Of a stretch of DNA of 64,000 nucleotides, positions 3,918 to 64,000 are shown in pieces. The stretch is taken from positions 44,764,001 to 44,828,000 of the forward strand of contig OZ024744.1 in the NCBI GenBank assembly GCA_964016885.1, read 5' to 3'. The notes beneath the pieces are model-generated. The model had not been told where the DNA came from and made no database searches. It worked only from the letters and a program-made list of their open reading frames with translations. The position numbers and the translations under genes were made by a program. How positions within the stretch are numbered: position 1 is the stretch's first letter; the number at the start of each line of letters is the position of its first letter. Source of the stretch: Eledone cirrhosa. Taxonomy: Eukaryota.

Positions 3918-3960
3918 GATGGCTGCCCCCTCATTATCGAGTATGGCCATTGCACGAGAA
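3918..3960 (-). mobile_element. Detached 3' terminus of an RTE element (probably RTE-3, body at 62803-64000)
   Basis: GATGGCTGCCCCCTCATTATCGAGTATGGCCATT matches GGTGGCTGCCAACTCGTTTTCGAGTACGGCCATT (2319-2352). Both run into (TACA)n. Confidence 0.7.
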
Positions 3961-3971
3961 AAAAAAAATAT

Positions 3972-4032
3972 TAATAACAATAATAATAATAATAATAATA
4001 ACAACAAAAATAATAACGACAACAACAACAAT
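3972..4032. repeat. Degenerate (AAT/AAC)n tract, left boundary of the array
   Basis: Directly visible. Confidence 0.9.
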
Positions 4033-7000
4033 GCTTTCTTTATTAACCACAAGGGTTTACATAAAGTAGACATTAAGGACAGTACAGGACAATACAGGAC
4101 GGTAAAAATGGGCATTTCTGCGTGTAAAAAATGCTGGGAAGAGAGCACTTCCCTCTCTACCCTGATTTTCCTTTTCAAATGAAATTTGAAAAAGTTAATC
4201 AGGGTATCACCGAAGAGGTAAGTGCTCGTCTTCAGCCCTTTCAAACGTGTCCACCATACTATCTCTTTCGTCATGGCCACTAGACAGATAAAAACTGCCT
4301 GCCCTTCCCGGCTAAAGGGAGAGGGCGGGGCATCCTCACGATGGACTCAGCTGATAGCTGGATCCGTTCTACACGTGACAGCAGGTGTTCGACATAAACC
4401 CACAAGTCAGCAATGCTCGGACACTGGACGAGTGCGTGCAGGACGGTTTCGTCACCCTGCGCGCATCTCGGACATGCCCGGCTGACGGCACCTCCATGCC
4501 TGTAGAGTTTATCCCGAACTGGCATGGCTCCCCGGTAGCACTGCCAGGCCAGGGATTTCTGGAAGTTGTCCATAGGCCCCGGCTAGAAAGTCCTTCCGAA
4601 GAGATTGGCTAGTTGATTTTCGTCGACGCCTAGAGTTTCTCCAAGTACGTCGTCGCTCTTCCTCCCCACTAATCCTCTATAGAACGCCAAGATGGAGTTT
4701 CCACCGATCGCATTGCCCGATTGGTCGAGGCCTGTGAGCGCCTGAAGACATTCCAGTCTCCAAGCGCTCCCTCTCGGTCTTCGCTTGACCCAGGACTGCA
4801 GCTCCGTCAAGGAGACGAGCTGGGGAAAGACGTGTCTAGCAAACGGCAACTACACCTGATACCCGTTGAGGAAGAGGTGGAGATGTCGTAGACTGAGCGC
4901 GTGTCTGCACATCATCAGCCACGGCATGCCCAGCCCTCCACGTAGCGGGTGTTGACAGCAGATGGACCGCCTGACCATCGGAGCACGTCCCTTCCACAAA
5001 AAGCGAAAGAGCAAACGCTCCAGCGCAGTCAGGCGGGGCTTAGGACAGGGTAAGACGGTCAGGCGGTAGTAGATGACGGATGCGATGTACGCGTTGGCCA
5101 CCTCCGCTCGACCTTTCAGGGATAGCTTCCTCTCCGCCCATTTCTGGGTGAGAGAAGCAATCCTGATCGCACCTCGTCCCAGTTTTTGTCCGTCTGGAGG
5201 TTCGGCCCGAAACAGACTCCTAGCAATTTAACCGGTCCGTCCGTCCAGCGCCCGACGACGCTGTTGGACGGCATGGACCTGCCTCTCCAGGTGCCGAGCT
5301 GCAGCCCCACTGACTTTTCCTGGTTGATCATTGCTCCTGCCACCGCTTCGTATTCTCTTAGTGTAGTGCCGATTGCCTCGATGTGTTTGGCGTTCGACAC
5401 CACTACGGTGACATCGTCCGCATATGCTGACACGGATCTTCCGCATCCTAGTTCGCGCGGGACCCCCCTCAACGTCTCCAGTTTGTGCAGTAATGGCCCG
5501 AGAGTCAATACGAACGAGAGGGACGAGAGGGGACATCCTTGGCGGACTGAGCACATCATGTTGAACGGTTCCGAAAGGTGACCGTTCACTCTCACCACAG
5601 AGCAGATGTCGCTGTGCATGGCAGCGATCCAGCCTCTGAAGACGGGCCCTAAGCCTGCCGCCCTCAGGACTGCCGCTAGGTAACGATGGTCGACCCAATC
5701 GAATGCTTTCGACTGATCTAAATTGATCAAGGACCCACCCGTACCAGGTTCCCTAGCTACCCTCTCTACGATGTATCGCATGAGGTGGAGGTTGTCGTGG
5801 GTGGATCTGTCTGGAATGGCGCATGTCTGCGAATCTCCCACCAGATCACCAACGACAAGTGCCAACCTCTTTGCTAGCACCTTGGCCAATATCTTGAACT
5901 CTGTGTTTAGCAGTGTTATGTCCTGAAATTATCTATGTTATCCCCCTTGTTCGAATCCTTTCTCAGCAGCGCCACAGCTCCTGGGCTCACAGAGCTGGGA
6001 ATTCTCCCGTTCTGTTGCCAGTTGCAGTAGACGTCCGCCAAGAGGCCTCCGAACAAGTCTGGCATCTGTACGTAAAGTTCATAGACCATCCAAACCATGC
6101 GATTTACCCCTTGTGCAGCCAGTCATTGCCTTCCGTACTTCAGCGGCTGTTATCGGCTTTTCGCAACCCTCCGCCTCAGTGGCCGAGAGCCGCGGCAGTA
6201 CGTCGAGGTAGACACTAAACTCCATCCCTCGATTCGGCCCGCCGCTGCCCCCGAACAGCTGTGCGAAGTGTCGCTGAAAAGCTTCACACATTTGCCCGGG
6301 ATCGAGTAGCATACGCCCGTCGTGGTCCACCAAAGACCGGATCGTGGCTTTGTTGCCACAACGCGCCTCCGCCACTCGGGCCCATTGAACGGCTTTCGTC
6401 CCCTCGTGTCTGAGAGCACGCACCCTAGCTCTGACAACAGAGCCTTCGTGCTTTGCATTGAAGAATTTATCAAGGGCCAATTTCGCCGCAAGTACGTCGG
6501 TCGCGATGCCTTTGCTAAGCGCCTCGTCTAATTTTCTAACTCGTTCTCCCTCTGCTCTATTTTTCTCTATTGCTAAAGCCTTGCTTAACCTAATGGACTC
6601 TATTCTAATTGCTCTTTTCAGAGCAAACCACCACTTGTTGTTGACGATGGCCCCCGTCAACGCCCGCTTAACTAGTTCGCTAATCCGGTCTCTGTAGGCC
6701 TTGCGCGCTGGTAAGGACGCGTTTAGCTTCCAGTAGCCGGGTCCTCTCTATGAAGCCTATCTAAGTCAAGCACACAGATCACGAATTTGTGGTCTGTGTA
6801 GCTGACTATCTTGAATTGTGGACAGCCTATGCTAGATCTATCTATTTCCCTACAAAATACTGTATCTAGATATGATCTGGATGACCCCATGCGATTGGCA
6901 CATTCGGGAAATCCAATCGCTACCTGTCAGACAGTTCAAAACGCCTGAGCAGGTTGGTGAAGCTTTTGCACCCTCCTCCCCTATGCGCTGATCCCACACC

Positions 7001-9306
7001 GTCCCAGCGTGCATCTAAGATCCCGTTCCATGTCGCCCACTAACACTAAAGAGCGGGACGTTCCAAGAAAAGTCTCCAGACACCGGAAGAAATCAGGCCG
7101 CCCTGCTCCTGTCGGGGCATAGACGGCCACTATCCTGAAAGCTTGCCCGTCTCCGCTGGTCACGTCCAGCACCACCAACTTACCTTCTGGGTCCAGGAAG
7201 ATGGCCCGTATGGCGAGATCCAAACCTCTCCGAAAAAGCACAGCAACTCCCCCCTCCGATCCCGGACGGCTGGGAGATGCGTACACATCGTAGCCGCCGA
7301 AGATCGCTGCGAAGGCCCGTGCTTCGGAGATTCTGGTCTCGCTGATGGCCACTACATCTATGTTTAGTGACCTGAGGTCGTTGAGCAGGTGGCCCTGCTT
7401 CCATGACGACCCCAAGCCACGCGCATTTATGCTGCCTATTCTGAGTGGGGTCATGTTGAAACGGAGCGGAAAAGATGGGAAAGACCACTTACTTTACTTC
7501 TCGTTGAGGAAGGATGATTTGTCCATCCTTTTCACTGCTTGTGGCCTCCTCCGGAAGGATGTCCTTATAAATCCTCCTGAAGAGTGTTTGTCGAAGTGTC
7601 CGATGTGTTTGGGGAATTTTTGTTTTAGTTTCGTGTACGTTTTCTGTGTGATACGAGTGATTTGTATGTGTGGAGGTGGTGTGAACTTTTGGGTTGTTGT
7701 GGGGTCTTTTTCTGTGATGCTGGTGTTATGTTGGATGTAGTGTAATAATTGGTTGTTCAAATTTAATGCTGTGTAGTGTGTAACGTTTTGGTTTTGTTTT
7801 GTTTGCGTTTGTTTCTGTTTAGTCTTTTGGTGACTTTTGTGGTGTTGGTGATGGTGGTGTTGGGGTTAATGATGGTGATGGTGTTGGTGTTTGTGGTGAT
7901 GGGGTTGGTGATGCTGGTGTGGATGGTGGCATATCTGTCCTAACTTTTTTCTTTGATATTTTATTTGTTTCCCTCTGTATTTTGTTTTTGGAGGGGGAGG
8001 GAAGTGAATTTTTTCCTTTTTGGTTTCTTATTTTCTTTTTTCCTGATACCGTTTCCCACTCCTCGTCGTCACCATCTGTCTCCAGTTGTGATAGGCCGGG
8101 AATGGAAAATCCTCCACAGGCGTTAGTTTTGGTTGTGGCGTGGTGGATGGTGTAGGCGCTGGTGCTAGTTCTGATGCGTTGGGTGGTGGTGGTGTTGGTT
8201 TTGCTACTGTTGCTGGGGTTGTTGCTGTTATAGTTGCTTCTGTTGTTGCTGCTACAGTTGTTGCTGCCATCTCTGCTCCTGGTGGTGTTGATGGTTGAGT
8301 CACTGGGGTGGGTAGGAGAGGTGGCCTCAACCTTTTAGCCTGAGGGCAGAAAGCCCTTAGGTGGGTTCCTTCACCACAAACGACACACCTAGGCCTTCTG
8401 CCCTCGACGATTACGGTGAGGTGGCTGCCGTCAGTGAGGTCTATTACCTCTGGGATCTCCTCAATGCTTTTTTGGTCCGCTTGGATCAGGAGCTCCATCC
8501 CAGATCTGGACCAGTTCTCCTGCTTTTCTTTCGCTATTTCGATTATCTTGGTGTTAGCTTCGAAGCCGGCGAGGACGGCATCTATTAGCTAGGGAATTTC
8601 GATGGCCGTTGGAACGTGGGTCAGCCTGATCTTCACGAGTCTCTGGCCACAATAGTTTGGGACGTGTGTGAAGTCGTCACTTCTTAATGGGGCCATGGAG
8701 TTTTCTCTAGCCTCCTGTGGGGTTTCAAAGAACACGTCCACGGTTCCATATTTCTGCCCACGTCTGATGTGGGTTTTTTTGCCCACACATGTCCCAAAGC
8801 TTTTTGGATTTGGGACTCGGATGCCCGTTCCACTCGGCGCGACTTTATGCTAATCGTCCGATAAGACACGGTGCATAGGCGCCGATGCTCCATTTTATTA
8901 GGTGGGGTGGGGTGAGGCTGGCCCTCTACCCATCTTTCTTTACCATTTTTGGGGGTTTCTTATAATTCCTCCTGAGTTACCTGGAATGCTTCGCACTGTG
9001 TTACTACTCTGGCAAACTCAGGGTGGTTTTCTTAATTTATTTGTTGCTGTTATCGTTATTTTTGTTATTGTTAATTTTTGTTTCAGTTGTGGTGGTGGTG
9101 GCGTCAGTGGTGTTCGGTGTGGAAGAGTTAATTTTGGTTGAATTCATTTCGATATCACGAGTTAATTTATCTTTTTCTTTTGTTTCTGTTGTCGCTGTGG
9201 TGGTGGTGGGGGTGGCGGCTTTAACACCTGCAGTCATTGGTAATGGCGGGAAATGAATGTCTGCCTGAGACAAATTTAAAATGTTGCTACTGCTTATATT
9301 TTTAGT
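4033..9306 (-). mobile_element. Tx1/L1-type LINE copy E1 (family A), decayed, 5' end lost
   Basis: Family A 3'UTR with AATAAA. Frameshifted ORF2 from ATG 7454 (SINARGL..ISETR; LDQSKAF; QGCPLS; YADD; CPRC..H...C). ORF1 remnants with CVVCGEGTHLRAFC. Fused to E2 at about 9303-9306. Confidence 0.93.
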
Positions 9307-12300
9307 AGTAGAATACGGACGCGATGTTCGCATTCGCCACCTCCGCGCGACCTTTCAGTGATAGCTTCCTCCCAGCCCATTTTTGGGTGAGACTGGCTAC
9401 TCTGCTCGTTACCTCGTCCCAATTCTTTTCCACCTGGAGGTCTGGTCCGAACCAAACCCCGAGCAACTTTACCGGTCCGTCCGTCCAGCGCCCCACGACG
9501 CTGTTGGACGGCATAGGCTTGCCTCTCCAGGTTTCGAGCTGCAAGCCCACCGACTTTTCCGGGTTAAATTTGGCTCCTGTCAACCTTTCATATTCCTTCA
9601 ATAAGGTGCCGACCACCTCGATTTCTGAGGTGTTCGACACCATCACGGTGATGTCCGCATAAGCCGACACCGCCTTTCCACGTCCCGGTTCGAGCGGGAT
9701 GCCCTGCAACACTTCCGCAGTAAAGGCTCGAGAGTCAATACGTACAGAAGAGAATAGAGAGGGAACCCTTGACGGACCGATCGGGAGTGCCGAAATGGTT
9801 CCGAGAGGTGGCCATTAACCTTGACCACCGAACGTGTTCCGCTGTGCATTGCAGCGATCCAGCTTCTGAAGACAGGGCCGAAGCCAGCTGCTCTGAGGAC
9901 AAACTCCAGATACCGATGGTCGACCGTATCGAATGCTTTCGATTGATCTAAATTGATCAGTGCCCCCACTGAAGCCAGGTTTACACCCTACCCTCTCTAT
10001 GATGTAGCGCATGAGGTGGAGATTGTCGTGTATGGACCTGGCTGGGATTGCGCAAGTTTGCGCCTCCCCAACCAAATCCTCGATGACAAGCGCCAATCTC
10101 TTTGCAAACACCTTGGCCAAAATCTTAAACTCTGTGGTGAGCAGAGTTATGGGCCTGAAGTTGTCTAATGTATCCCTCTTGTTCTCGTCTTTCCTTATAG
10201 CGTCACCACTCCCCTGCTCACAGAACTGAGAATACTCCCATTCTGCTGCCAGTTGCAGTAGAGTGCTTCGAGGAGATTGGAGAACAAGTCTGTCATATTT
10301 ACGTAAAGCTCGTAGGGCAGACCATCCAAACCGGGTGACTTGCGCCTCATGCAGCCGACAAGGGCGTCCTGAATTTCGGCTGAACTAATCAGCCTTTCGC
10401 AGCCCTCAGCGTCGACCGTCGAGATGCGCGGCAAGCCGTCAAGGTAGGGACTGAAATCCGCTACTCTCTCTGACTCACCGCTCTCCCCGAACAACCGAGC
10501 AAAGTGCTGGCAAAAGGCCTCACACATCCGCTTGGAATCGCTTATCTCGTGTCCGTCTCGGTTCGCCAAAGACCGAATTGTTGTTTTATTACCACGCTGC
10601 GCTTCCGCCACGCGGGCCCATCGAACAGCTTTGGTTCCCTCGTTTCTCAGCACACGCGCCTTAGCTCTGACAATGCAACCTTCGTGTTTTGCATTGAAGA
10701 GATGGTATAATGCCATTCTCGCCACTAGCACGTCAGTTGCAATGCCACTACAATTAGCCTCGTCTAACTTATCTATCAGCTCACCCTTCTTTCTATATTT
10801 CTCTAACGCTAGTTCTTTGCTGAACTCTATCGAAGTTACTCTAATCTCTCTTTTGAGAGCCCCCCCCACCACCACCACCACCATCTGTTGTTGATGATCC
10901 CCCCTGTCAACTTTTGCTTAACTAAATTGTTGACTCGGTCCCTGTAAGCCTTACGTGCCGGAAATGACATGTTCAGCTTCCAGTAACCAGGTCCTAACCT
11001 ACACGTTTTATCTAGGTCGACCGTACAGATCACAAATTTGTGATCTGAATAAACGACCGTTTTAAAAAGTGGGCAGCCCACACTATTTCTATCTATTTTC
11101 CTAATGAAGATCCTGTCTATATACGATCTAGATGACCCTATGCGGTTGGTTCATGTCCATAATGGCACATTGGGGAAATCTAGTCGATACCTGTCAGACA
11201 TTTGGAACTGGCTGAGTAGGTGCTTGAGGCTTTTGAACCCCCCGCTCCTATCGGCTACTCCCACACAATCACAGCGTGCGTCTAATATTCCATTCCAGTC
11301 CCCTGCTAACAGTAAAGGGCGAGACGTACCCAGAAAGGTCTTCAGGCGCCTAAAGAAGTCCGTCGTCCGGCCCCTGTAGGAGCGTAGACGACCAGCAGTC
11401 TAAAGGCACCACCTTCGCTACTGCTGACATCCAAGACCACCAACTTACTGTCCAGGTCCCGGAAGATCGACCTTACCTCGAGATCCAATCCTTTCCTAAA
11501 CAGAACTGCCCCCCCCCCCCCCCCATTCCCGGTCTGCTAACAGATGCGAAGATCTGATAGTCGTCGAAAATGTCGGCTAGTGCGCGCGTGTCGGAAATTC
11601 TGGTCTCGCTGACGACAATCACATCCATTTCAAGCGACCTGAGGTCTTTGAGCAGGCGACCCTGCTTCCAGGGTGACACCAGGCCGCGAACATTTAAGCT
11701 TCCTACTCTTAATATGGCCATGTTGGTAAGCTAAGAGAGAGAGGGAAGGTTTACTTACCTCCCGGAGTCTTGTGAAGGTCGGGTGATTCTACCTCCATGG
11801 TTGGTGGGGTTTCTTTTGGGAACCCATTTAAAAGTCTCGATGTGGGTTTCACATTCGGGGTTCCCACGTCTTAAGGAAAGCTCTCTCGAATTTCTTTGAA
11901 GGAATTGACTGACATTCCGACCAGAAGCAAATCTTCTGGCACGCAAAATGTGCTCATTTCAAAAATCTCCCCCTCTGTTTGAATGTCCTCGTTCGTGCTA
12001 AGAGGGCCATCAGTTTATTGTTGGCCCTTCTGACAAGCACGAAGTTTTTAACATTTCGTTGGTGTGGTTTTATTTGTTTTCGTTTTGGTGACTGGTGGTG
12101 ATGGTTTTGGTGGTGTTGTTTCAGGTATGTCTGTGTTTGTTGTAGGTGTGGTGTCTGCAATTTCAGGTATTTGTGTGTTTATTTGTACTTGTGTTTGTTT
12201 AGGTTGTTTGCGTTTCGGGGATTGTGGGGGTGGTGTCGATGTTGCTGTTGGTGCTGATGTTATTGGGGAAGTGTTTGCGTTAGTGGTGTCTGTATTTTTT

Positions 12301-13959
12301 GTTGTGTATGTTTTTGTTTTGTTGGGGTTTTTTTGTGAGTTTTCTCTGTTTTTTTTGCACTTTTGGGTTTTCCTTCATCTTCGCTGCTGGAAGACAAAGG
12401 GTCTGTGGCTGTGAATGTCTCTGTGTCTGTGTGTGCGTTTATTGTTTTGTCTATGTGTATAATTGGGGGGTTAGGGGGAGTGGGAGAGCTTTCCTCGTTT
12501 TCCCCTTGGATTGGTTTTGGTGTTGGTGGTGATCCAGCTGTTTTTGATGTTGGTGTCCGTGTCTTTGTTGGTGTTGTTTTTGGTGGTGGTGGTGGTGCAG
12601 CTTTCCGTGCTGACACTGGCGTTGGGAACAAAGGAGGTTTGCGAGCCCCTGCATTTTTGCACTGAGGGCAGAAGGCTTGCAGATGTGTTGCTTCCCATCA
12701 GACGAAGCAGCGTGGCCTTCTTCCATCAATGATTAGTTGGATTGTTGTCCCGTCCTGCAGGCGGGAAAAATCCGGGATGTTGTTCATGTCCTCCGGTTTC
12801 ATTTGGAGAAGAATCTCCAAATCCATTCCGGACCAGTCCTCTCTCTCTGTCCTTTTCATATCCAGGAGGGTAGTGTCTGTCCCCTCCTCGATTACGCATC
12901 CCGGCAGCCACCATATGTTCATTCCTGGTGGGATGCTGGGAATGCGGACCTTTACTGTCCTTTTACCCATGTAGGACGGATGCATGATAATGCGTTCCGT
13001 TCTGCAGGGGGTCACCGAGTGCTTAATAACGAGGGCCTCGGTTTTGAACAGTACCGAGATGGTACCGAACTGTTTGCCTCTTGCTTTATACTCTATGTCA
13101 CTTCCGATGTACTCCAAAGCAGCCTCGACCTCTGCTTGGCTGGCAAGTTCCACTTTTCGTATCTGCACCGAAATGCAGCGAAAGTACACCGTCCTCCTTT
13201 GCATGGCCGCTATTGCCCCGTCCGGGATGGTCAGGTTTGCCCAGGACTTCTCCCGTTTAATTAGCCTCCACGCTTGTGCCAACTGTTCGTCTTTATCGCT
13301 AATATCAACATCAATATTCAATAAGCGCTTTGTTTTTGCTGCTGCTGCAGCAAATGTGGTGCTTCTGATGCTCTTGTTGTTGGTGTTGTCATTCTTGCTG
13401 TTGTTATTGTTGTTGTTGTTGTTGTTTTGTTTGTTGATGCTGTTGCCACCGCCATCCGTGTTTACATTGAAGCTGTCGGTGTTATTGTCGTTATTGCTCT
13501 GAGTTGTTGTTGTTGTTGTGGTGGTGGTGGCGGCGGTGGTGGCGATGGCGTCGGTGGTGGTGGTGATGTCGTTCTCAGATGATACTGCTGCTATCACAGA
13601 AGGTTGAGTTTTGCCTTCACATTCAGTAGAGTGGATGACAGGCATTACTGTAGCCGTCGTAGTCGTGGTGAAATCTACAGTGGCTGCCTTTAAACTTTTG
13701 ACCTGAACGTTGTTTACCGTTTCAAGGTCGAAAAGCGTTTCAAGGTGGGGAAGCGATTTTTTTCGAAGTTTTTTAAAAATAAATCTGAATATTCGGGCTT
13801 AAAGCCCGAATATTGAGAGGTATCCCTCTCTTTAAATCAAGATGTGTACCTTAAGTTTCGGTAGCGACAAGAAAATAAAAAAAAATGGCACTTTAAAACA
13901 GCTTAAATTACGAACCTTTTCCCCCGCAGATTTGTACTGTCTTCACATATGTGCGTCCC

Positions 13960-13960
<1 letters not shown>
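9303..13960 (-). mobile_element. Tx1/L1-type LINE copy E2 (family C-like), 3' part deleted
   Basis: ORF2 fragments 9302-11721 (MAILRVGSLNVRGL; SDHKFV; LDQSKAF). ORF1 fragments about 11751-13750 (WANLTIP..RRTVYFRCIS..GRRPRCFV). The 5' end abuts (AAT)n at 13961. Confidence 0.92.
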
Positions 13961-14040: not shown

Positions 14041-14042
<2 letters not shown>

Positions 14043-14755
14043 TACGTGACTGATAGTAAGGAGCCAATGCTCAGAACTGTACTGAAGGAGAGGACAATAG
14101 ACCAGGGGATGTCCAAGGAGGAAATAACAACAAGGAGAAGGAGCAGCCTTCAGGAAAAATCCCTTCATAGTACCTTCTTTGAGAAAACTGAATTCAGAGA
14201 TACACAGACATGGAACTGGTTGAAAAGAGGAGACCTTAAAACGGCTACAGAAGGAATGTTAATGACTGCGCAAGAGCAGGCCTTCAAAACGAAGTGGTTG
14301 AAACACCATATTTACAAGGAGGAGGCTAGCCCACTGTGCAGGATCTGTGGAGAGAGAGAGAGGAGACTGTGGCTCACATTGTATCCGAGTGAAAAAAGAT
14401 CGTGCCTGATTGTGGATGTGGCCTGCCCATTCGACACGAGAGTGCAAGAGAAGGAGAGGGAGAAAATTAACCGATACCAGGACTTAAAGTGGGAGGTAAA
14501 AAGGATTTGGAACTGCCATGAAGTCAAAGTGGTCTCGATTGTCATAGGCACACTAGGTACTATCTCAAAAAGTTTCCAGAGATGGATAAAGAAAATTGGC
14601 CCCGCCCCGCTTTTTGGAACACTTCAAAAGGCATGATTGCTGGGAACAGCAAGAACTCTCCGATACGTCCTGAATATCTGAGGCTGCAGGTAGTGGCTTG
14701 ATATCCATTTCAACAAACTTTCCAGTTAACTAACATCAATGAGTGAGACTCAAAG
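14041..14755 (+). mobile_element. Dong/R4-type element D1, 5'-truncated 3' fragment
   Basis: Matches the C-terminus of ORF 59132-62524 (SKEPMLR..TEGMLMTAQEQA..CRICGE..IVDVACPFD..EKINRY) and its 3'UTR. Internal deletion of about 230 bp at about 14391. Ends in AAT repeats. Confidence 0.93.
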
Positions 14756-14799
14756 AATAATAATAATTATTACTTTAAGAAAACGCACATGGTGGATAT

Positions 14800-18819: not shown

Positions 18820-18837
18820 AACAATAATAATAATAAT

Positions 18838-36373: not shown

Positions 36374-36429
<56 letters not shown>

Positions 36430-40096: not shown

Positions 40097-40131
40097 GTTT
40101 AAAATAGAGTGGAAAAGATGGGAAAGACCAC

Positions 40132-45453: not shown

Positions 45454-45506
<53 letters not shown>

Positions 45507-45760: not shown

Positions 45761-45778
45761 TAATAATAATAATAATAA

Positions 45779-51592: not shown

Positions 51593-51593
<1 letters not shown>
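45779..51593 (-). mobile_element. Tx1-type copy E10 (family A), full-length and frameshifted
   Basis: Family A 3'UTR. ORF2 fragments 46017-49427 are colinear with E8 ORF2. ORF1 fragments 49462-51386 include CVVCGEGTHLRAFC. The 5' end abuts (AAT)n at 51594-51656. Confidence 0.95.
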
Positions 51594-51656
<63 letters not shown>

Positions 51657-51658
<2 letters not shown>

Positions 51659-54600
51659 TATCATTTATTAGCCACATGGGCCGACATACAGGGAACAATA
51701 CAAAAGACTGGGACAGTGGGGTATTACAGAAAAATAGAGTAAACAATATTAATCACAATAACAAAGAAACAAGAAAATTACACCAAGAAAAAATTCCCCA
51801 ATAGGGGGGATGACCACCCAGGGTTCGCTCAGGTATCCCACCAATCCTGAACGACACAACGCTTCGGGAGCACCCTGGAAGGGCACCCCCTCTCCTCCTC
51901 AAATTTACCTACCTACAGCCGCATGACAAGAGTAGGCCCACTCACACGGGCCATTCTCGCCACATTCACCCACATTTCAGCAAATGTACTGGGGGCAGCA
52001 CTTCTCTCTCCACAGTCACCTTTCTTTCCAAGTGAAACTTGAAAAAGTTGATGGCCGAAGAGAAAAGTGTCTGTCTTCACATCTTTCAACCTCGTCCACC
52101 ATACAACCTCTTTCGCTACTGCCACCAGACAGAGGAAAGTTGCCTGCCCTTCCTGGCCAAAAGAAGGCGGCGGGTCGATCTTCACTATGGACTTGGCCGA
52201 TAGACGGGCAGGTCCGTCTGACAGCACTTGCGTGCATGTAGAGTTTATCTCGAACCGGCAGTGCCCCCCGGTAACACTGCCAATCGAGGGATTTTTGGAA
52301 ATTATCCATCGTCTTCAGCTCGAAAGTCCTCCGGTAAAGACTGGTTAGTTCGACTTCGTTGATTCCCAGAGCCTCTCCGAGTGCGTCGTCGCACTTGCCC
52401 ACCACTAATCCTCTATAGAACTCGAGAGTGGAAGTTCCACTGACCGCATTGCCCGCCTGGTAGAGGGCAGTGAGTGCCTGGCAACATTCCAGATGCCATT
52501 CACCCAGTCTCGGTCTCTTCTTGACCCAGGACTGCAACTCAGTCAAAGAAACGAGCTGCGGAAAGGCCCATCTGACAAAGGGCGACCACACCTGTTCACC
52601 GTTTAGGCAGAATATCTGGAGATGCCGCAGCCTCAGCAAGTGCCTGCGCATCATTAGCCACGGCATGCCCAGCCCTCCACGTAGAGGGTGCTGGCAGCAG
52701 ATGGACCGCCTCACCAGCGGAACCTGACGCCTCCACAAGAATTTGAAGAGGAGCCGCTCCAAGATGGCGAGGCGCGTACGGGGCAAGGGACGACGGTCAG
52801 ACGGTAGTAGTTCGCCACCTCAGCCCGACCTTTCAGTGATAGCTTCATCCCAGCCCATTTCTGGGTGAGACTGGCTACCCTGCTCGTCACCTCATCCCAA
52901 GTCTTATCCACCTGGAGGTCTGGCCCGAACCAAACCCCTAGAAACTTTACCGGTCCGTCCGTCCAGCGCCTAACGACGCTGTTGGACGGCATGGACTTGC
53001 CTCTCCAGGTCCCGAGTTGCAAGACTACTGACTTTTCCGGGTTAAGTTTTGCTCCCGTCAACCTTTCATATTCCTCCAATAAGTTGCCGACCACCTCGAT
53101 TTCTGAGGTGTCCGACACCATCACAGTAATATCGTCTGCATAAGCCGAGACAGCCTTTCCGCGTCCCGGTTCGAGCGGGATGCCCTGCAACAGCTCCAGC
53201 TTCCCCAGTAAAGGCTCGAGAGTACAGAAGGGAGGAGAGAGGGCACCCTTGACGGACCGATCGGGAGACCTGAAACGGTTCCGAGAGGAGGAAATTAATT
53301 TTGACCACCGAGCAGGTGCCGCTGTGCATTGCAGCGATCCAGCTTCTGAAGACGGGGCCGAAGCCAGCCGCCTTGAGGACAGCCTCCAGGTACCGATGGT
53401 CGACCCTATCGAATGCTTTCGATTGATCTAAATTGATCAGAGCCCAACCGAAGCCAGGTTTACACCCTACCTTCTCTATGATGTATCGCATCAGGTGGAG
53501 GTTGTCGTGTATTAACATGGTTGGGATTGCGCAAGTTTGCGCCTCCCCAACCAAATTCCCGACGACAAGCGCCAACCTCTTCGCTAACACCCTGGCCAAA
53601 ATCTTAAACTCTGTGTTAAGCAGAGTTATGGGCCTGAAATTGTCTAATGTGTCCCTCTTGTTCTCGTCTTTCCTTATCAGCGTCACTACGCCCCGGCTCA
53701 CAGAACTGGGAGTACTCCCGTTTTGTTGCCAATTGCAGTAGAGGGCTTCGAGGAGGTTGGAGAACAAGTCTGGCATATTTACGTAAAACTCGTAGGGCAG
53801 ACCATCCAAACCGGGTGACTTGCGCCTCATGCAGCCGACAAGGGCATTCTGAATCTCGGCTGAAGTGATTGGCCTTTCGCAGCGCCCAGCGACAGCCGTC
53901 GAGAGTAGCGGCAAGCCATCGAGGTAGGGACTGAAGTCCGCCACCATCTCTGACCCGCCACTTCCCCCGAACATGCGAGCAAAATGTTGGCGAAAGGCTT
54001 ATCACATCCGCTTGGAATCGCTCAGCTCGTGTCCGTCTCGGTCCGTCAAAGACCGAATCGTGGTTTTATTACCAAGCTGCGCCACTTCCATGCGGGCCCA
54101 TCGAACAGCTTTGGTTCCCTCGTTTCTCAGAGCACGCGCCTTAGCTCTGACAATGCAACCTTCGTGTTTCGCATTTAAGAAATGGTATAATGCCATTCTC
54201 GCCGCTAGCACGTCAGTTGCAATGCCACTACCAGTAGCCTCGTCTAACTTATATACCAACTGCCCCTCCTTTCTATTTTTCTCTAACGCTACTTCTTTGC
54301 TAAACTCTATCGACATTACTCTAATCTCTCTTTTGAGAGCCCCCTCACCCCCCACCATCTATTGTTGACGTCTCCCGCTGTCAACTTTTCCTTAACTAAA
54401 TTGTTGACCTGGTCCCTGTAAGCCTTACGTACCGGAAATGACATGTTTAGCTTCCAGTAACCAGGTCCTAACCTACGCGTCTTATATAGATCGACCATAC
54501 AGATCACCAACTTGTGACCTGAATAGGCGACCGTTTCAAAACGTGGACAGCTTACACTATTTCTGTCTATTTTCCTAATGAATATCCTGTCTATATACGA

Positions 54601-57366
54601 TCTAGATGACCCTATGCGGTTAGCCCAGGTCCACACTGGCGCATTAGGGAAATCTAGTCGGTACCTGTCAGGCAGTTGGAACTGGCTGATTAGGTTCTTG
54701 AGGGATTTGCACCCCACGCTCCTATGGATACTCCCACACAGTCTCTGCGTGCGTCTAAGATGCCGTTCCAGTCCCCGCTAACAGTAAAGGGCGAGACGTG
54801 CCCAGAAAGGCTTCCAGGCGTCTAAAGAGGTCCGGCCGTCCTGCCGCAGTAGGAGCATCGACGGCCACCAGTCTAAAGGCACCACCTTCGTTATTGTTCA
54901 CGGCCAGGACCACCAACTTCCCGTCCGGGTCCCAGAAGATCGAACTTACCTCGAGATCCAGGCCTTTCCTCAACACTGCCACCCCGCCTCCCATTCCCGG
55001 CCGGCTAACAGACGCAAAGATCTGATAGTCGTCGAAAATGGGGTGTAGTGCGCTCATGTCGGAAATCCTGGTCTCGCTGACGGCAATTACATCCATTTCT
55101 AGAGACCTGAGGTCATTGAGCAGGTGACCCTGCTTCCAGGACGATCCCAGGCCTCGAACATTTAAACATCCTACTCTTAATACGGCCATGTTGGCAGGTT
55201 AAAAAGAGAAAGAGGAAAGGTTTACTTACCTTCCGGGCTCTTGTGAAGGTCGGGTTGTTCGACCTCCCTAGTTCGTGGGGTTTCTTTTGGGAACCCCTTT
55301 AAAGGTCTTGAAGTTGGTTTTACGTTTGGGGTTCCCACGTCCCGAGGAAAGCTGTTTCGTATTTCTTTGTATAATTCGATCGACATTCGCACCAGAACCA
55401 AATCTTCCGGCACGCGAAATGTGCTCGATTTATAAATTTCCCCCTCTTTTTGTATATTTTCACTTCGTGCTACGAGGGCCATCAGTTCCTTGTTGGCCCT
55501 CCTGACGATCACGAAGTTTTGTATATTTTGTTGGTGTGATTTTATTTGTTTGCGTGGCTGTGGTGGTGATAGTTTTGGTGGTGTTGTTTCGGTTGTGTCT
55601 GTGTTTGTTGTGAGTGCGGTGTCTGTGGTTTCAGATGCTTGTCTGTATATTTGTTCTAGCGTCTGTTTAGAGGTTGTTTGTGTTTGGGGGATTCTGGTGA
55701 TGGTGATGGTGGTGATGATGTTGGTGTTATTGGAGAGATGTTTGCGTGGGTGGTATCTGCGTTTTTTATTGTGGGTGATTTTGTGCTTTGTTGAGTTATT
55801 TTTTTCTTTTTGTGTTTCCTTTTTTTGTATTTTGGGGGATTTGGGTTTTCCCTCATCTTCACTACTGGTAGATGAGGGGTCTGTGTCTGTAAGTGTGTCT
55901 GTATGTATGTTTATGGTTTTATTGGTGTGTGTATTTTGGGGGGGAGGGGGAATGTGACAGCTTTCCTCGTTTCCCTCTTGGGTGGTCAATGTTGGTGGTG
56001 GTCTTTCTATTGTTGTTGTTGTTGGTTGTGGTCCTCGCCCCGGCATCGGCTGCAGTGGAGCCTTTCGACCCCTTGCCTCTTTCAACAGTTGAGGGCAGAA
56101 GGCTCGCAAATGGGTTTTTTCCCCACAAACAAAACACTGCGGCCTTTTGCCTTCGGTCATAATGTGAATGGCCGTCCCATTCTGAAGGCGGATGTGGTCT
56201 GGGATTGTCTTCACATTCTCGGGCCTGATCTGGGGAAGTATATCCAGGTCAACCCCGGACCAGTCCTTTCTGGCCGTTCTTGTCACTTGTATAGGGACTG
56301 TATCCGTCCCCTCCACAATCACACATCCAAGAAGCCATCACATGTCAAGTCCTGGTGGGATTCTGGGAATGCGGAGACGGGCCGTTCTTTTTCCCATGTG
56401 GGAGGGGTACATTATGACCTTGCTGGTTTTGCAAGGAGTCATAGCGTGTTTCATAGCGAGGGCTTCTGACTTGAACAACACTGAAATGGTGCCGTACTGT
56501 CTGCCCCTCTCTATGTATTCGGTGTCTTCTCTGATGCACCTCAGCGCGACTTCGACATCTTCTTGTGGGATTAAAGCTGCCCTTTTGGTTTGTGCTGAGA
56601 TGCATCTATAATGCACCGTTCTGCGCCCCACTGCCTCAATAGCTTCTACCGGGACAGTTAAGTTTGCCCATGTTTGCTCTTGCTTGATGAGCTTCCATGC
56701 CTGGTCCAACTTTTCATCTTTGTTTGAGAGGTCCATGTTGAAGCATGGCCTCTTTTTTGCTGCTGCCGCAGCGAAAGTGTTCTTCTTGTTTTCGTTGGGG
56801 GGTGTGGTTGGTGTTGTTCTTGTTGGTGTTGTTGTTAGCACTGTCGCTGTTATCATTGTTGTCTTTGTTGCCACCGTTGTTCTCGGTGCAGTTGGTATTG
56901 TTGCTGTTGGTGTTGTCGCTATTTGTTTTCATGTTAGTGGTGTTGATATTGTTGTTACATTTGTTATCTTTTTTTTTTGTTATCTGTATTCTCGTTGTCG
57001 CTGTTACTGTCATTTTTTTCAAAATTAGAGTTCTTATTGGTATCATTGGTGTCTTTGTTTACCTTGTTTGAGGTGGTGTTTGTGCTATCAATGTGTGTTA
57101 ATTTCGCTGTAGCGCTCCTCTCAACTTCTACGTCGTTGTCGCACGACAGCCGACATATCGCTGGGGACGTGGCTCAGCCATGTTTTTTTTCTCCGTAAAT
57201 TTTTTAACATGTAAAAAAGTTCAAATATTTGGGCCAAAAGACCTTTCACAGGGCAAAGTCTAAGGGTTTATATCCCTTAAACAACAAGAAATATTTAACA
57301 ACAAATAATTTTAACAGGCAAATAAAGCGACTTACTGGGACTGAGAAAAATACGTCCGATTAGACC
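51657..57366 (-). mobile_element. Tx1-type copy E11 (family C), full-length and frameshifted
   Basis: Family C 3'UTR. ORF2 fragments 51913-55189 (MAVLRVGCLNVRGL; YADD). ORF1 fragments 55222-57181 (CFVCGEKTHLRAFC). The 5' end abuts (AAT)n at 57367-57426. Confidence 0.94.
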
Positions 57367-57426: not shown

Positions 57427-57552
57427 CGGAGGTCATGAAATCGCTCCCGTAAGTTTTGAATTTTTAACATATTTAAACCATTTGTGAAATAACAACTCTT
57501 AGCACAAATGCTACGTAAAGCACCCGGCTTGAGCCCCAAAAAATTCGGACCC

Positions 57553-58829
57553 AAAATATATTGTTATAAGGCTCAAATATTCAAATATTCAACTTTGTAT
57601 TGTACACTGTATATCCCAAAAAAAAAAAAAAAAATGGCTATAAATGGAAGAAGAACCCCTCCCCTCCTCTCCTCTGGCTACACTATATAGGACAGCTAAA
57701 CTCACCAACACCAGAAACTAGATACACCACCCACCCCATCATATGTGTACACTAAACACAACAGCCAGATAACGACACATTTTCACCTTCACCGCCACCG
57801 CTCACTACGGCCATCATTACCACCACTATCCCATCACCGCCGCCACCACCCCTTGACTCCGCTACAGCACCATCACTACAGTAATACGGTCACATCACCG
57901 CCACCACTGCCTCGGTATCGACATCACCACCACCACTGTCTCAGTATCGCTAACGCCGCCAGTCTCCCACTTCCCTGCTGGCTGCTACTCCCACATTATA
58001 GAATTCCTACTACTAACAAAGAGGAAGGCATCAAAATATATAGATAGACCCAAAAGAAAAAAGAAAAAACAAACAACAAAACCAAAGCAGCACAGCAACA
58101 ACAGCAAAAAACGAGAAAAACAAACAGAGAAAAACAAAAACAAAAAAAAGAAACCCCAAAAACGTAAAGAAAATATATTGTTATAAGGCTCAAAACGTAA
58201 AGAAAATATATTGTTATAAGGCTCAAATATTCAAATATTCAACTTTGTATTGTACACTGTATATCCAAAAAAAAAAAAAAAAAAAAAATGGCTATAAATG
58301 GAAGAAGAACCCCTCCCCTCCTCTCCTCTGGCTACACTATATAGGACAGCTAAACTCACCAACACCAGAAACTAGATACACCACCCACCCCATCATCTGT
58401 GTACACTAAACACAACAGCCAGATAACGACACATTTTCACCTTCACCGCCACCGCTCACTACGGCCATCATTACCACCACTATCCCAGCACCGCCGCCAC
58501 CACCCCTTGACTCCGCTACAGCACCATCACTACAGTAATACGGTCACATCACCGCCACCACTGCCTCGGTATCGACATCACCACCACCACTGTCTCAGTA
58601 TCGCTAACGCCGCCAGTCTCCCACTTCCCTGCTGGCTGCTACTTCCACATTATAGAATTCCTACTACTAACAAAGAGGAAGGCATCAAAATATATAGATA
58701 GACTCAAAAGAAAAAAGAAAAAACAAACAACAAAACCAAAGCAGCACAGCAACAACAGCAAAAAACGAGAAAAACAAACAGAGAAAAACAAAAACAAAAA
58801 AAAGAAACCCCAAAAACGTAAAGAAAATA
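57553..58829 (+). repeat. Near-perfect ~625-bp tandem duplication in the D3 5'UTR
   Basis: 57553-58175 is repeated at 58203-58829 with few differences and a different poly(A) length. There is an extra ~33-bp duplication at the junction. Confidence 0.93.
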
Positions 58830-59131
58830 AGAATGAAGAGAGAAGCAGGCGGACGGACAGAGAAGAGGGGGGAAAAAGTAAAACTTAAAAAACTAAAACT
58901 AAGTCAGACATTCGAACACTACATTACAATGAAACTTATGCTTATTCATTTCTGGGGCCCTTTCTGCCTGTGTGTTTGTTTGTTTATGTGTGTTCGTATA
59001 CAGCGTGGTGATAATGCCACACAAGGGCCAAGTGGGATGGCGGACCCACAGATGGCTATGTAAACATACATTCGCCAATCCTCGATAAGAGTGTTTAAAT
59101 ATCGAACATAAACAGTTCGAATAACGGTGAA

Positions 59132-62100
59132 ATGGAGACTAGAACGTCATGTGACAGACTCTCACCCAACAGGTGCCCCCTGGCTCAGCAGCAGGAACCT
59201 GACTGTCAACCAAATACTGCTGATGTTGGAGGAAGGAGAAGAAGGAAAGGGGCCAGAACCAACTGGACGAAAGAATTGAATAGAACTGTTATGCAATGCT
59301 ACCTGAAAAGTAACCCCAAGGAGAGGGGCTACAGGAGACGGATGCATAACATCTGGAACGAGATTGGTTTATTTAAATTAGATGAACAAAAATTGGCCGG
59401 GCAGGCTCGGGTAATAAGAACTAATGGGTGGATAAGCGAGCTGGAACTGGAGGAACTGAGCAGAGAGAATGGCTTGGAGATGGCGGGTGTAGTATGCCAG
59501 ACAAGCGAGCCGGTGGGAAATGAAGGTGAGGAGGTCCTGAGAACGGAGGAACCACCCGAAGCAGACAATGATCTGAGTACTGAGATAAATAATACCTGGA
59601 ACAGAGATACGGCCACTGAGGAGATGAATGCTGACGGGCTAGGACAAGATTCGGTTGACATCCTAAATTTAGTGGTAGATGAATTGAACAATGATAGTGG
59701 GAGACCTATGAACCTAAGATTTGTAGACAGGAAAAAGTTAAAAGAAACAACAGCTAAGGTAAACAAAGTCATCCCATACCTTGAGGCGAGGAGCCTTCAC
59801 CAGTGCAACAATATCCTCAGAGCAACAGCAAATACGGTGAGGAAACTACTTGGTATAAAAGCGAGAGGAAACAACAGACAAGAAAGAGCAGAGCCGTGGT
59901 GGAAGAAGCGACTGAGTGGGCAAATCGGGGAAATGAGAAATGACATAGGAAAGCTTGAGTCACTACTGAATGGGACACTAAAAAACATAGGCACTAAAAA
60001 TAAACTGGAAATAAAATACAAAACTAGGAGTAAAAAGCTAAATATTATCATAGAGGAATTGAAGCAACGCATTGTAGCAAAGAGTGCAAAAACCAGGCGA
60101 TACGAGAACAGAGTCAGTCAGTATAAACAGAACCGCATGTTCGACAACAACCAGAAGATGCTGTTTGGACAGCTTGAGGGCAAAGAAAGAGGCAACGACT
60201 TGATCCCTGGGGCGGAGCAAACTAAAACATTCTGGAGAGGAATATGGGAGCAGGATGTTAGACACAATGCCCAGGCAGGGTGGATTGAGACAGTACAGAG
60301 GGAGATCGGTGAGCAGGCACAGCAACAGACTGATTTGAGTATCACAGTTGAAACTCTTAAGGGACAAGCCAAAAAACTAACCAACTGGAAATCGCCAGGC
60401 CCAGATGGTGTGCAGGGGTATTGGATTAAACATCTAACATCCCTCCACCCGAAGCTGACGGCCATGTTCAATGACTGCTTGGTGACGGGTGAGGTGCCAG
60501 AGTGGTTGACAAAAGGTACCACAGTTCTGATAATGAAAGACCGAATCAAGGGTAATGATGCTACCAACTATAGACCTATCACATGTCTGCCCGTAATGTG
60601 GAAACTGTTGACGAGCATTGTGTCTGAGGAAATCTACCATCACCTCCACACAAACAACTTGTTACCGGACGAACAGAAAGGATGCCGAAAGAAGTCACGT
60701 GGTACAAAGGACCAGTTGCTTATTGATAAGATGGTAATGGGGAATTGCAGGAGGAGACACACTGATCTTGCCATGGGATGGATAGACTACAGAAAGGCAT
60801 TTGACATGGTGCCTCATTCCTGGATCACCAAAAGCCTGGAGATCTTCAGGGTGGCGGATAACATCAGACAGTTGCTAGGCAGGAGTATGGGGTCCTGGGA
60901 GACAGAGTTGACATCAACTGGAGTATCCTTGGGAAGCGTGAAGATCAAGAGAGGTATCTTCCAGGGAGATAGCCTGTCCCCTCTGTTGTTTGTCCTTGCC
61001 CTGATGCCCTTGACCATTATGCTGCGAAAAGTGAGAGCAGGATACAAGTTGGGAAGGGGAGAGCTTACCATCAATCACCTCCTCTTCATGGACGATCTTA
61101 AGCTCTTCGGGAAAAGTGAGAAGGAGTTGGATGTGCTTGTTGACACTGTCCGTATTTTCAGCAGTGATATATGTATGCAGTTTGGTATTGGTAAATGTGG
61201 AGTCACTGTGATGAAGAGGGGTAGGTTGAGCAGAAGTAACGGGATCCAGATACCAACAGGTGAGATGATAAAGGAAATTGACTCTGAGGAAGGATACAAG
61301 TATTTGGGCGTTCTGGAGGCTGATGGCATAAAGAACAAAAAAATGAAGGAATTGTTAAGAACTGAATACATTCGGAGAGTAAGGAGCGTATTGAAGTCAC
61401 ATCTGAACAGCAGAAATGCCATAAGCGCAGTAAATTCCCGAGCTGTGTCTATTATTAGGTACAGTGCGGGAATTCTGAGATGGAATGTTGCTGAACAGAA
61501 AGAAATGGATAGGAAGACTAGGAAGCTATTGACTATCTACAACATGTTCCACAAGAGGAGTGATGTCGATAGACTCTACCTAAGGAGATCTGAGGGTGGA
61601 AGAGGTCTTATCAGCATAGAGGACTGTGTTCAGATGGAGAAAAACAACCTATACAAATACGTGACCTATAGTAAGGAGCCAATGCTCAGAGCTGTACTGA
61701 AGGAGGGGACAGTAGGCCAGGGGATGTCCAGGGAGGAAATAACATCAAGGAGGAAGAGCAGCCTTAAGGGAAAACCCCTTCATAGTACCTTCTTTGAGAA
61801 AACTGAATTTAGAGATCCACAGACATGGAACTGGTTGAGAAGAGGAGACCTCAAAAAGGCTACAGAAGGAATGCTAATGGCTGCGCAGGAGCAGGCCCTC
61901 AAAACGAAGTGGTTGAAGCACCATATCTACAAGGAGGAGGCCAGCCCACTGTGCAGGATCTGTGGAGAGAGAGAGGAGACTGTGGCTCACATTGTGTCCG
62001 AGTGTAAACACCTAGCCCAGACCCACTATAAGGGCTGGAGACACGATGTGATGGGCAGGGTGATCCACTGGCACCTGTGCAAAGTAAACAATCTACTACA

Positions 62101-62524
62101 TTCTGAGAAATGGTATGAGCATAGGCCAGAGGCGGTGATGGAGAACAATCAGGTGAAGGTGCTGTGGGATTTTAGGATACAGACGGACAAAAAACTGGAA
62201 CACAATAGACCTGACCTGGTGGTTGTGGACAAAGAAAAAAGATCGTGCCTGATTGTGGATGTGGCCTGCCCGTTCGACACGAGAGTGCAAGAGAAGGAGA
62301 GGGAGAAAATTAACCGATACCAGGACCTAGAGTGGGAGGTGAAAAGGATTTGGAACTGCCATGAAGTCAAAGTGATCCCGATTGTCATAGGCGCACTGGG
62401 GACTATCTCCAAAAGTTTCCAGGGATGGTTAAAGAAAATCGGCCCCTTCACGCTTTTTGGAACGCTTCAAAAGGCATGCTTGCTTGGAACAGCAAGAACC
62501 CTCCGATACGTCCTGAATATCTGA
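59132..62524 (+). CDS. R4/Dong-type polyprotein: RT + CCHC finger + restriction-like endonuclease (1130 aa)
   Basis: N-terminal EQKLAGQARVIRTNGWISELELE. RT motifs NWKSPGPDG, YRPITCL, IDYRKAFDMVPH, QGDSLSPLLF and FMDD. CRICGEREETVAHIVSEC and RHD. RLE motifs RPDLVVVD..IVDVACP..EKINRY. Confidence 0.96.
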   Translation: METRTSCDRLSPNRCPLAQQQEPDCQPNTADVGGRRRRKGARTNWTKELNRTVMQCYLKSNPKERGYRRRMHNIWNEIGLFKLDEQKLAGQARVIRTNGWISELELEELSRENGLEMAGVVCQTSEPVGNEGEEVLRTEEPPEADNDLSTEINNTWNRDTATEEMNADGLGQDSVDILNLVVDELNNDSGRPMNLRFVDRKKLKETTAKVNKVIPYLEARSLHQCNNILRATANTVRKLLGIKARGNNRQERAEPWWKKRLSGQIGEMRNDIGKLESLLNGTLKNIGTKNKLEIKYKTRSKKLNIIIEELKQRIVAKSAKTRRYENRVSQYKQNRMFDNNQKMLFGQLEGKERGNDLIPGAEQTKTFWRGIWEQDVRHNAQAGWIETVQREIGEQAQQQTDLSITVETLKGQAKKLTNWKSPGPDGVQGYWIKHLTSLHPKLTAMFNDCLVTGEVPEWLTKGTTVLIMKDRIKGNDATNYRPITCLPVMWKLLTSIVSEEIYHHLHTNNLLPDEQKGCRKKSRGTKDQLLIDKMVMGNCRRRHTDLAMGWIDYRKAFDMVPHSWITKSLEIFRVADNIRQLLGRSMGSWETELTSTGVSLGSVKIKRGIFQGDSLSPLLFVLALMPLTIMLRKVRAGYKLGRGELTINHLLFMDDLKLFGKSEKELDVLVDTVRIFSSDICMQFGIGKCGVTVMKRGRLSRSNGIQIPTGEMIKEIDSEEGYKYLGVLEADGIKNKKMKELLRTEYIRRVRSVLKSHLNSRNAISAVNSRAVSIIRYSAGILRWNVAEQKEMDRKTRKLLTIYNMFHKRSDVDRLYLRRSEGGRGLISIEDCVQMEKNNLYKYVTYSKEPMLRAVLKEGTVGQGMSREEITSRRKSSLKGKPLHSTFFEKTEFRDPQTWNWLRRGDLKKATEGMLMAAQEQALKTKWLKHHIYKEEASPLCRICGEREETVAHIVSECKHLAQTHYKGWRHDVMGRVIHWHLCKVNNLLHSEKWYEHRPEAVMENNQVKVLWDFRIQTDKKLEHNRPDLVVVDKEKRSCLIVDVACPFDTRVQEKEREKINRYQDLEWEVKRIWNCHEVKVIPIVIGALGTISKSFQGWLKKIGPFTLFGTLQKACLLGTARTLRYVLNI

Positions 62525-62645
62525 GGCTGCAGGTAGTGGCTTGATATTCAATCCAACGGACTTTCCAGTTAACCAACATCAATGACTGAGATTCAAGGAA
62601 TAACAATAACAATAATAATAATAATAATTTTAAAACAATTACAAA

Positions 62646-62715
62646 TATATATATACACACACACATATACATATCTATATATACATATACACATACACAT
62701 ACACACACACACACG

Positions 62716-62799
<84 letters not shown>
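62646..62799. repeat. (TA)n/(CA)n microsatellite
   Basis: Directly visible. Confidence 0.95.
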
Positions 62800-62802
<3 letters not shown>

Positions 62803-62803
<1 letters not shown>

Positions 62804-64000
62804 ATAACAATTAACGGTTCTGCGATCGATTGTAGCTTTTTAGCCCATCCAATGATCTAAAATGTCTTGCACAGTTGGTACCAAAACATTTACTGGGAAT
62901 AGCTGGCTGTGGTTGGAGTTCATGTACTTTTACATGTCGTTTGAGCCTCCTGTTGATCTACACTCTCTGCTACATGCTTGGCAGGCATGATGAGTAGCAT
63001 CTCCAACAGCAGCCTGGTAGTCAACCACTGGTCTTACTTTAAGACTGTGAAGATGACTTTCGAGTCCAGCTTTGCTGAGGCAGAGTCTCGCATAGACGCT
63101 GCATGTCAGCGCCATAGGAGGACCTTCGCTGCCTGGAAATGAAACGGCAATGCCCTTCCTCACACCCCGCTTTACTTTCTCATATGCAATTCGTAATGCC
63201 TCAAAGGCAACTTTTCCCTCATATACAGTCTTTCTCCATTTATTACGATCAGCAGCAATATTTTCCCAAGTATCAGCAGAGATGTTAACGTCTTTCAAAG
63301 AGGCTTTCAACGAATACTTATACATCTCTTTTGGTTTATGTGGAGGTCGTTTTCCTTTAACTAAATCTCCATAGAAGAGTTGTTTTGGTATTCTAGAATC
63401 CTTCATCCAGGCATGGTGACCACTCCAACGGAGTCGTTGCTTAAGCACAGGAGCTTCTATACTGTCACACAGAGAGCTTTCCAAAATCTCGACATCACTG
63501 ATGTGGTCCCTCCAGTGAACGCCATGGATCCGTCTGAGGCACATCTGATGGAAACGCTCCAATTGCTTAAGGTGGTGTCGATATGTGACCCAGGTCTCGC
63601 AGGCATAAAGAAGAGAAAAGAGCACACATGCCTTGTAGAGCTTTACCTTGTCCTCCTGCATATGTCTCGCCGACCCCAGAGTCGCCTTTCTAGCTTTCCG
63701 AAAGCATCATTTACTTTCCTAATCCTGAGTTGGATTTCATTATCAAGGTTGCTGTATCGATTGACAGTGATTCCCAGGCAGACAAACTGATCAACCACTC
63801 CATGTCGTTTACCATACACATAGATATTTGGTTCACTGTACTGCTTACCAGGGGCAGGTTGGTACATGACGATGGTTTTCTTGAGACTGACAGTCAATCC
63901 TAGGGCAGTGCAAGCATCAGAAAATGCATTTAAAATGTGCTGCATTTCACTCTCTGCGTGCACTACAAGATCGCAATCATCTGCATACAAGAGGTCTCTT
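62803..64000 (-). mobile_element. RTE-clade LINE (RTE-3), RT C-half and C2H2 tail, continues beyond the window
   Basis: YADDCDL..LGLTVSLKKT; LLYACETWVTYRHHLKQLERFHQMCLRRI; RLRWSGH..RIPKQLFYG. Three C2H2-like remnants. Frameshifts present. Confidence 0.93.

Follow-up and report, generated by a model that had tools for sequence, protein, structure and literature searches.

A single split retroelement very probably frames a pile of other retroelements in the window, i.e., the whole stretch of 64,000 nucleotides of Eledone cirrhosa DNA analysed here. Between the minus-strand 3′ terminus of an RTE-type element and a minus-strand RTE body lie 58,656 bases (3973 to 62628), in agreement with the size of about 59 kb given by an earlier sequence-only reading. 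This array is made up of 16 retroelement pieces, which account for 58,131 of its bases and are bounded mostly by runs of AAT. The history that we consider probable on balance is that one RTE was present first, that it received a low-complexity insert at its stop codon, and that repeated target-primed insertion into AAT then took place at that site. The order of apparent ages within the pile fits this history imperfectly.

Anatomy of the array

Self-comparison and translated searches resolve the stretch 3973-62628 into 11 L1/Tx1-like pieces, all on the minus strand, four R4/Dong-like pieces, all on the plus strand, and one SINE-like piece. The names Tx1 and Dong are provisional assignments that we make from domain layout. 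The Tx1-like copies belong to three families, 74-81% alike in ORF2. Percentages in what follows are private changes, as defined in the section on ages.

At the left, the Tx1-like copy A1 (4033-9305, minus; 1.8%) has lost its 5′ part at an AAT-free junction at 9305, beyond which lies B1 (9306-13960, minus; 2.7%), itself deprived of its 3′ part. Two Dong/R4-like copies come next on the plus strand: D1 (14042-14755), 5′-truncated and carrying an internal deletion, and D2 (14768-18819), near full length, with four stops and 30 private changes in 640 sites. They are followed by C1 (18838-21596, minus; 3.9%), which joins A2 (21597-26030, minus; 5.2%, eight stops) without AAT at 21597, and by the short piece at 26052-26210 (no strand assigned), which is putatively SINE-like and is without a match in Rfam. 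C2 (26214-30455, minus; 7.5%, seven stops), B2 (30471-36048, minus; 5.1%, nine stops) and the 5′-truncated 3′ fragment C3 (36064-36373, minus) complete the central portion.

Further to the right, A3 (36428-42444, minus; 0.6%) keeps both ORF1 and ORF2 (EN, RT and zf-RVT) open, and A4 (42472-45453, minus; 0.6%) shows a large internal deletion at 42688. The fragment at 45505-45761 (plus) appears to be the 3′ end of a second RLE-type, Dong-like family; it gave no tblastn match and was recognized by eye through the likeness of its translation to the C-terminus of D3. A5 (45777-51593, minus; 1.3%) and B3 (51657-57366, minus; 3.7%) are both full length, and the series closes with D3 (57427-62598, plus), whose open ORF of 1130 aa encodes RT, CCHC and a PD-D motif.

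Leaving aside a duplication of 627 bases within one 5′ UTR, the copies are at most about 95% alike in the self-comparison, and their private change spans 0.6% to 7.5%. They are, therefore, separate insertions and not tandem duplicates, and growth of the array by tandem duplication was rejected on account of this unlikeness.

The boundaries of the pieces point to the target. Fourteen of the 17 are AAT runs, 12-81 bases long, the others being one AAT vestige (26210-26214) and the two AAT-free junctions (9305 and 21597). The runs at 13961, 45454 and 57367 each sit between two 5′ ends and must therefore be targets, not tails. Orientation in AAT is fixed within the window (11 of 11 Tx1-like pieces minus, 4 of 4 Dong-like pieces plus), with both native ends in the repeat; the Tx1-like 3′ end reads AATAAA and then an ATT run, without poly(A).

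The outermost AAT/AAC runs, given on the plus strand, occupy 3973-4032 at the left and 62599-62628 at the right. Both start with AATAACAAT, which is held by just these two among the 14 AAT runs, and this confinement, a pattern spotted post hoc, fits an old seed. The sequence-only reading had pointed to AATAACAAT at 3973 and 62803 as a possible remnant of the seed site or a target-site duplication. It is indeed present at both places, but the window holds seven copies, so that two occurrences alone do not go beyond chance; a diagnostic duplication was accordingly rejected. In the one family continuation listed (see below), the motif seen at 62803 is absent.

The two halves of the host element

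Both ends of the host had been recognized from the letters alone, and both stand. The 3′ terminus without a body, comprising a short UTR, lies on the minus strand at 3918-3974 and closes at a TTAA (3971-3974); its portion 3918-3970 precedes an (ATGT)n tail, expanded and decayed (2930-3917, minus; 988 bases, TRF period 4, 257.5 copies). The same type of tail follows the two other RTE termini found in the first 4 kb, near 1330 and near 2320. A hairpin predicted at the host terminus (3914-3962) has a z of -0.33. The body without a terminus (62811-64000, minus) continues from the RT motif LLYADD through C-terminal C2H2-like fingers as far as its stop codon (62811-62813); it carries four frameshifting indels and no in-frame stop, and extends past 64000. 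The host thus has the succession of RT, short UTR and tandem-repeat tail that is a feature of the RTE clade, and it is from this layout that we provisionally take it to be an RTE. A TTAA is found at both breaks (3971-3974 and 62811-62814), a detail absent from the earlier reading. Insertion of a piggyBac-type element at TTAA was rejected, both borders being simple repeat and no terminal repeats being visible by eye.

Protein homologues of the body (15, with RVT_1 and C2H2 families where annotated) share 39-56% identity with it and are therefore too distant to reveal the UTR. A DNA motif near the end of the body gave three matches in metagenomes, all due to chance, as none extends past the motif, and none in genome and viral contigs. 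Scans with protein patterns yielded no loci that could be used.

Whether terminus and body belong together was examined with four of ten candidate sequencing runs, aligned to 62787-64000 at 80% likeness. The host family is very abundant in organism D, with a contig depth of about 1e5 (run X4), and at the bin that contains the stop codon and the break this depth drops from 124,558 to 2,019: family copies depart from the window sequence there. In a RAD run, 204 molecules end at 62809, an AATT, where the adjacent depth is 314, and molecules also start at a CATG (62986); the ends at 62809 would correspond to a restriction cut, indicating that paralogues have an AATT at that place.

The course of the family past the break is given by one continuation among the 22 loose ends listed (343 further ones exist), drawn from two contigs of run X2, from a related organism (organism B); it is a mixed consensus, with an agreement of 0.57 before 62811. 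Aligned ungapped, it shares 21 of 30 letters with 3938-3967, the single best of about 128,000 window places on both strands (seven places reach 20), and 14 of 100,000 shuffles reach 21 in the target region (P 1.4e-4). A control at 62947, where 15 of 16 departures from a 14-contig consensus go to the alphabetically earlier letter, suggests that ties in a mixed consensus are broken in that direction. In its first 23 columns the continuation departs from the terminus six times, each time toward the alphabetically earlier letter, the only three other departures being located in an A-run; none of 50,000 shuffles reaches the observed pattern. One of the two contigs is, then, probably nearly identical to the terminus at 3918.

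A coincidence, in which the terminus at 3918 would come from an unrelated, 5′-truncated RTE and the body would have lost its own end, could be invoked given how common RTE termini are here, three in the first 4 kb with a similar core in all. The same continuation, however, matches just 13 and 15 of 30 letters at the two other termini, the better fit at 3918 includes the family-specific part, and it ends no more than three letters from the common TTAA. We regard this reading as largely refuted and highly improbable.

The match to 3938-3967, together with the TTAA on both sides, leads instead to terminus and body of one family, contiguous in other copies and meeting within three letters of the common TTAA, as the two contigs support. 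Since the continuation both aligns to 3938-3967 and adjoins 62811, there is no long missing segment. Thus, the nesting of the array in an RTE, as the sequence-only reading had proposed it, is upheld with regard to the family and its contiguity elsewhere, whereas the place has to be shifted: the break falls at the boundary of stop codon and UTR, at the TTAA, and not inside a longer UTR. The spacings from GGCCATT to the last finger on which that proposal leaned, 48 nt in RTE-2 and 52 nt at the join, are arithmetically right, but the spacing in the family is about 39 nt by arithmetic, and 42 if the window is joined at the TTAA; moreover, RTE-2 is another RTE family, so that the comparison with it is not diagnostic.

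Contiguity of this kind proves identity of family, not of copy, and copies of this family are very numerous, to judge by the contig depth of about 1e5 given above. The flanks could then come from two copies of the same RTE family, each interrupted at one and the same TTAA hot spot, with recombination between their arrays or misassembly within the array joining them, which would also ease the conflict of ages discussed below. Such a course would require that the same site be seeded twice, though family copies have no real AAT run there and family reads do not enter the microsatellite; as for misassembly, the copies of the array, at most about 95% alike, would be diverged enough for long reads to order them. 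We consider it unlikely, and we infer an origin of both flanks from the same copy. Neither an empty allele nor a read across either array junction was seen among the reads aligned to 62787-64000. The topology of nesting, as such, we hold to be very probable.

Between the right outer run and the body there is an additional stretch, 62629-62810 (no strand assigned), a microsatellite insert of (TA)n(CA)n peculiar to this locus, with AACAATTA on either side (62634 and 62806). The sequence-only reading had conceded that sequence in this place was left unexplained by simple nesting, and rightly so: the stretch needs a separate event of its own. That it could be the UTR of the family was rejected on the basis of depth, the mean in the first bin being 151, which fits the 146 to be expected were every molecule to end at 62809, and not the 205 to be expected were the uncut ones to continue. 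AACAATTA has three copies in the window, and the pair flanking the TA/CA stretch is possibly a duplication left by an earlier small insertion.

Relative ages and a proposed history

Private change was measured at first and second codon positions where every other copy agrees, excluding CpG, with 10 copies compared. For the host body, at least 31 near-fixed differences were counted in 1190 bases (2.6%, CI 1.8-3.7) from the 40 rows listed of 380, a value that is a lower bound with a ceiling of 98 places, or 8.2%. A2 (5.2%), B2 (5.1%) and C2 (7.5%) exceed this 2.6% (Fisher p 0.003, 0.003 and <0.0001, respectively, in 10 comparisons), bearing in mind that the measures for host and Tx1-like copies differ in kind and that the latter may include source-lineage change and alignment noise. 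At the stop rates of A2, B2 and C2, the probability of finding no stop in the host would be 0.024, 0.036 and 0.056. The density of frameshifts, on the other hand, is similar (four in 1.19 kb in the host versus 3.2-3.7 per kb in the decayed copies).

By these measures, decay appears more advanced in the three central copies than in the host. As a host must predate its guests, this counts against pure growth in place, and the earlier suggestion that a few AAT units seeded 59 kb of growth is not established. Decay of CpG was rejected as the cause, since the gap stands at non-CpG rates; possible sources are a rate that is higher locally, host conversion, and import of a block.

In favour of the last of these, the most decayed copies (D2, C1, A2, C2 and B2) lie side by side in a single block, 14768-36373, whose runs are short (12-21 nt), and three of the five appear to predate the host. 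Nesting would be real, but the smaller array seeded in the RTE would have received this old core in one piece, copied from an older AAT array through non-allelic recombination, or through repair, with AAT runs or Tx1 copies as partners; the two junctions without AAT are in line with it. Nevertheless, the host age on which the argument turns is only a minimum (at least 31 differences in 40 of 380 rows), and loose ends show further host differences near indels, outside the 40 listed rows. A core that had aged in place would likewise be expected to have short runs, the pattern would be no different under gene conversion of a high-copy RTE or under a rate raised locally, and no donor locus was seen. 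Import of the core is, in our estimation, a rather improbable course.

The probable history, that of growth in place, would comprise several steps. A single RTE copy would have inserted first. AAT/AAC units and a TA/CA microsatellite would then have arisen at the A-rich TTAA holding its stop codon; this small low-complexity insert would probably have been accompanied by duplication of the site. The AAT part would have become the target of Tx1-like elements of at least three lineages, which have their sense on the ATT strand, and of two Dong-like families, which have theirs on the AAT strand. As each target-primed insertion would leave AAT on both sides, the target would be renewed; slippage would lengthen the runs again, and insertions of differing age would pile up in place. 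A few later deletions (at 9305, at 21597 and the internal ones) would have completed the present structure.

Known systems and the meaning of the pile

Nesting of elements is in itself ordinary. The array is a large nested insertion of a mechanistically familiar sort, and repeated insertion into a self-renewing microsatellite target is a known principle. Telomeric SART/TRAS arrays in (TTAGG)n bring together, within one simple repeat, elements of two types that face in opposite directions; in the window, unlike these, the flanks are ordinary repeat-rich DNA and not telomeric repeat. In the nested LTR-retrotransposon piles of plants, nesting allows host and guests to be dated mutually, whereas the apparent ages seen here do not follow nesting cleanly.

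As to the guests, the open copy A3 displays the layout of the Tx1 group, with ORF1 and an ORF2 that encodes APE endonuclease, RT and zf-RVT. The translation of D3 shows that of Dong/R4, with a single ORF for RT (RVT_1), CCHC and a restriction-like PD-D motif, and TAA as target; the best PDB matches of its 1130-aa ORF are R2 proteins. A search for sequences identical to either open ORF was negative, and Rfam, including the 5′ HDV-like ribozyme, gave no match at gathering score.

Target-specific LINEs have been described mostly in the RLE, Tx1 and R1 groups (PMC4640811). Dong elements of the R4 clade (Bombyx Dong, DongAg and DongBg) are described as targeting TAA (PMC3812793), and Dong has been placed in the R4 lineage and credited with a 5′ ribozyme (PMC3774820). 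The window elements resemble them in their single long ORF with RT, CCHC and PD-D and in a sense strand flanked by (TAA)n, and differ in that they share their target with Tx1-like elements in one 59-kb pile. Among microsatellite-specific Tx1 elements, published descriptions mention Kibi in (TC)n and Koshi in (TTC)n (PMC3812793; PMC4494074), as well as crocodilian elements in (TTCC)n/(TTTC)n (PMC4494074). With these the Tx1-like copies have in common two ORFs, APE, RT and zf-RVT, ends adjoining a microsatellite and one orientation. They depart from them in a target, (ATT)n/(AAT)n, that lies outside the targets described in the available text of those papers, in the presence of at least three lineages 74-81% alike in ORF2, and in AATAAA followed by an ATT run.

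Insertion that preserves its own target is reported to build tandems, such as the R1 array and the P-element and jockey dimers (McGurk and Barbash, 2018, PMC5932611). Compared with these, the window is alike in the target kept at the junctions and in distinct truncations that denote separate insertions; it is unlike in mixing two LINE clades, in opposite orientations, between the halves of one RTE, and in showing no expansion by unequal exchange, its copies being at most about 95% alike. RTE, Dong-R4 and L1-Tx1 elements, for their part, show recent activity in Octopus vulgaris according to PMC13282606, and an expansion in coleoids according to PMC8967140. An AAT-specific Tx1 sharing the target of Dong, or a mixed Tx1/Dong array, was not found in the literature listings and abstract openings searched, nor in the papers cited here; repeat libraries published as supplements to the octopus work may already include these families.

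The split RTE supplies the starting point of the pile, which went from a few dozen bases to about 59 kb. The growth of a microsatellite-targeted LINE array thereby becomes datable and testable in related genomes, through the empty allele, the order of arrival and the rate of growth. Furthermore, Tx1-like lineages with an AAT target common to Dong, and one open copy of each, lend themselves to a test of how two unrelated endonucleases reach one target. Should the core truly predate the host, such arrays would be mobile as blocks. As a conjecture that we hold doubtful, AAT runs may be self-renewing pads common to an undescribed AAT-specific Tx1 radiation and to Dong, on opposite strands, in piles that would also move or be exchanged in blocks measuring tens of kb, with the result that an older core comes to be enclosed by a young host.

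Tx1-like 3′ ends and the length of AAT runs

Within the array (3973-62628), seven 3′ ends of Tx1-like elements, located at 4033, 18838, 30471, 36428, 42472, 45777 and 51657, carry an AATAAA motif followed within a few bases by an ATT run, and a poly(A) tail is absent at all seven. The length of the AAT runs differs between more and less decayed copies. Around the most decayed copies, in 14768-36373, the runs are short (12-21 bases), whereas around younger copies they are mostly long (27-81 bases), apart from one run of 15 bases.

Apparent rearrangements within copies and at junctions

In ORF2, A3 (the Tx1-like copy with open reading frames) shares about 95% of its sequence with A1 and A5, two copies of the same family. 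Its ORF1 and 5′ end (40132-42444) differ from theirs, the core showing an amino-acid identity of about 53%, an apparent swap of the ORF1/5′ region inside one family. The 5′ UTR of the Dong-like copy D3 contains a 627-base tandem duplication (57553-58829) whose halves are 98.6% alike and whose seam carries a 33-base unit. At 9305 and 21597, unrelated parts of different Tx1-like families are joined without AAT, sharing at most 1-2 letters; these junctions correspond to deletions or template switches within the array.

RTE termini left of the array

The minus strand of 1310-3970 holds a head-to-tail series of three RTE termini, each different from the others and each followed by an (ATGT)n tail. 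One copy, RTE-2 (2320-2930), distinct from the host RTE, seems to be a 610-base element and a possible non-autonomous derivative, in which a 5′ part, presumably RTE-like, is joined to the last finger and the terminus. It is flanked on either side by an ATAC run, and RTEs may thus also stack in one another's tails.
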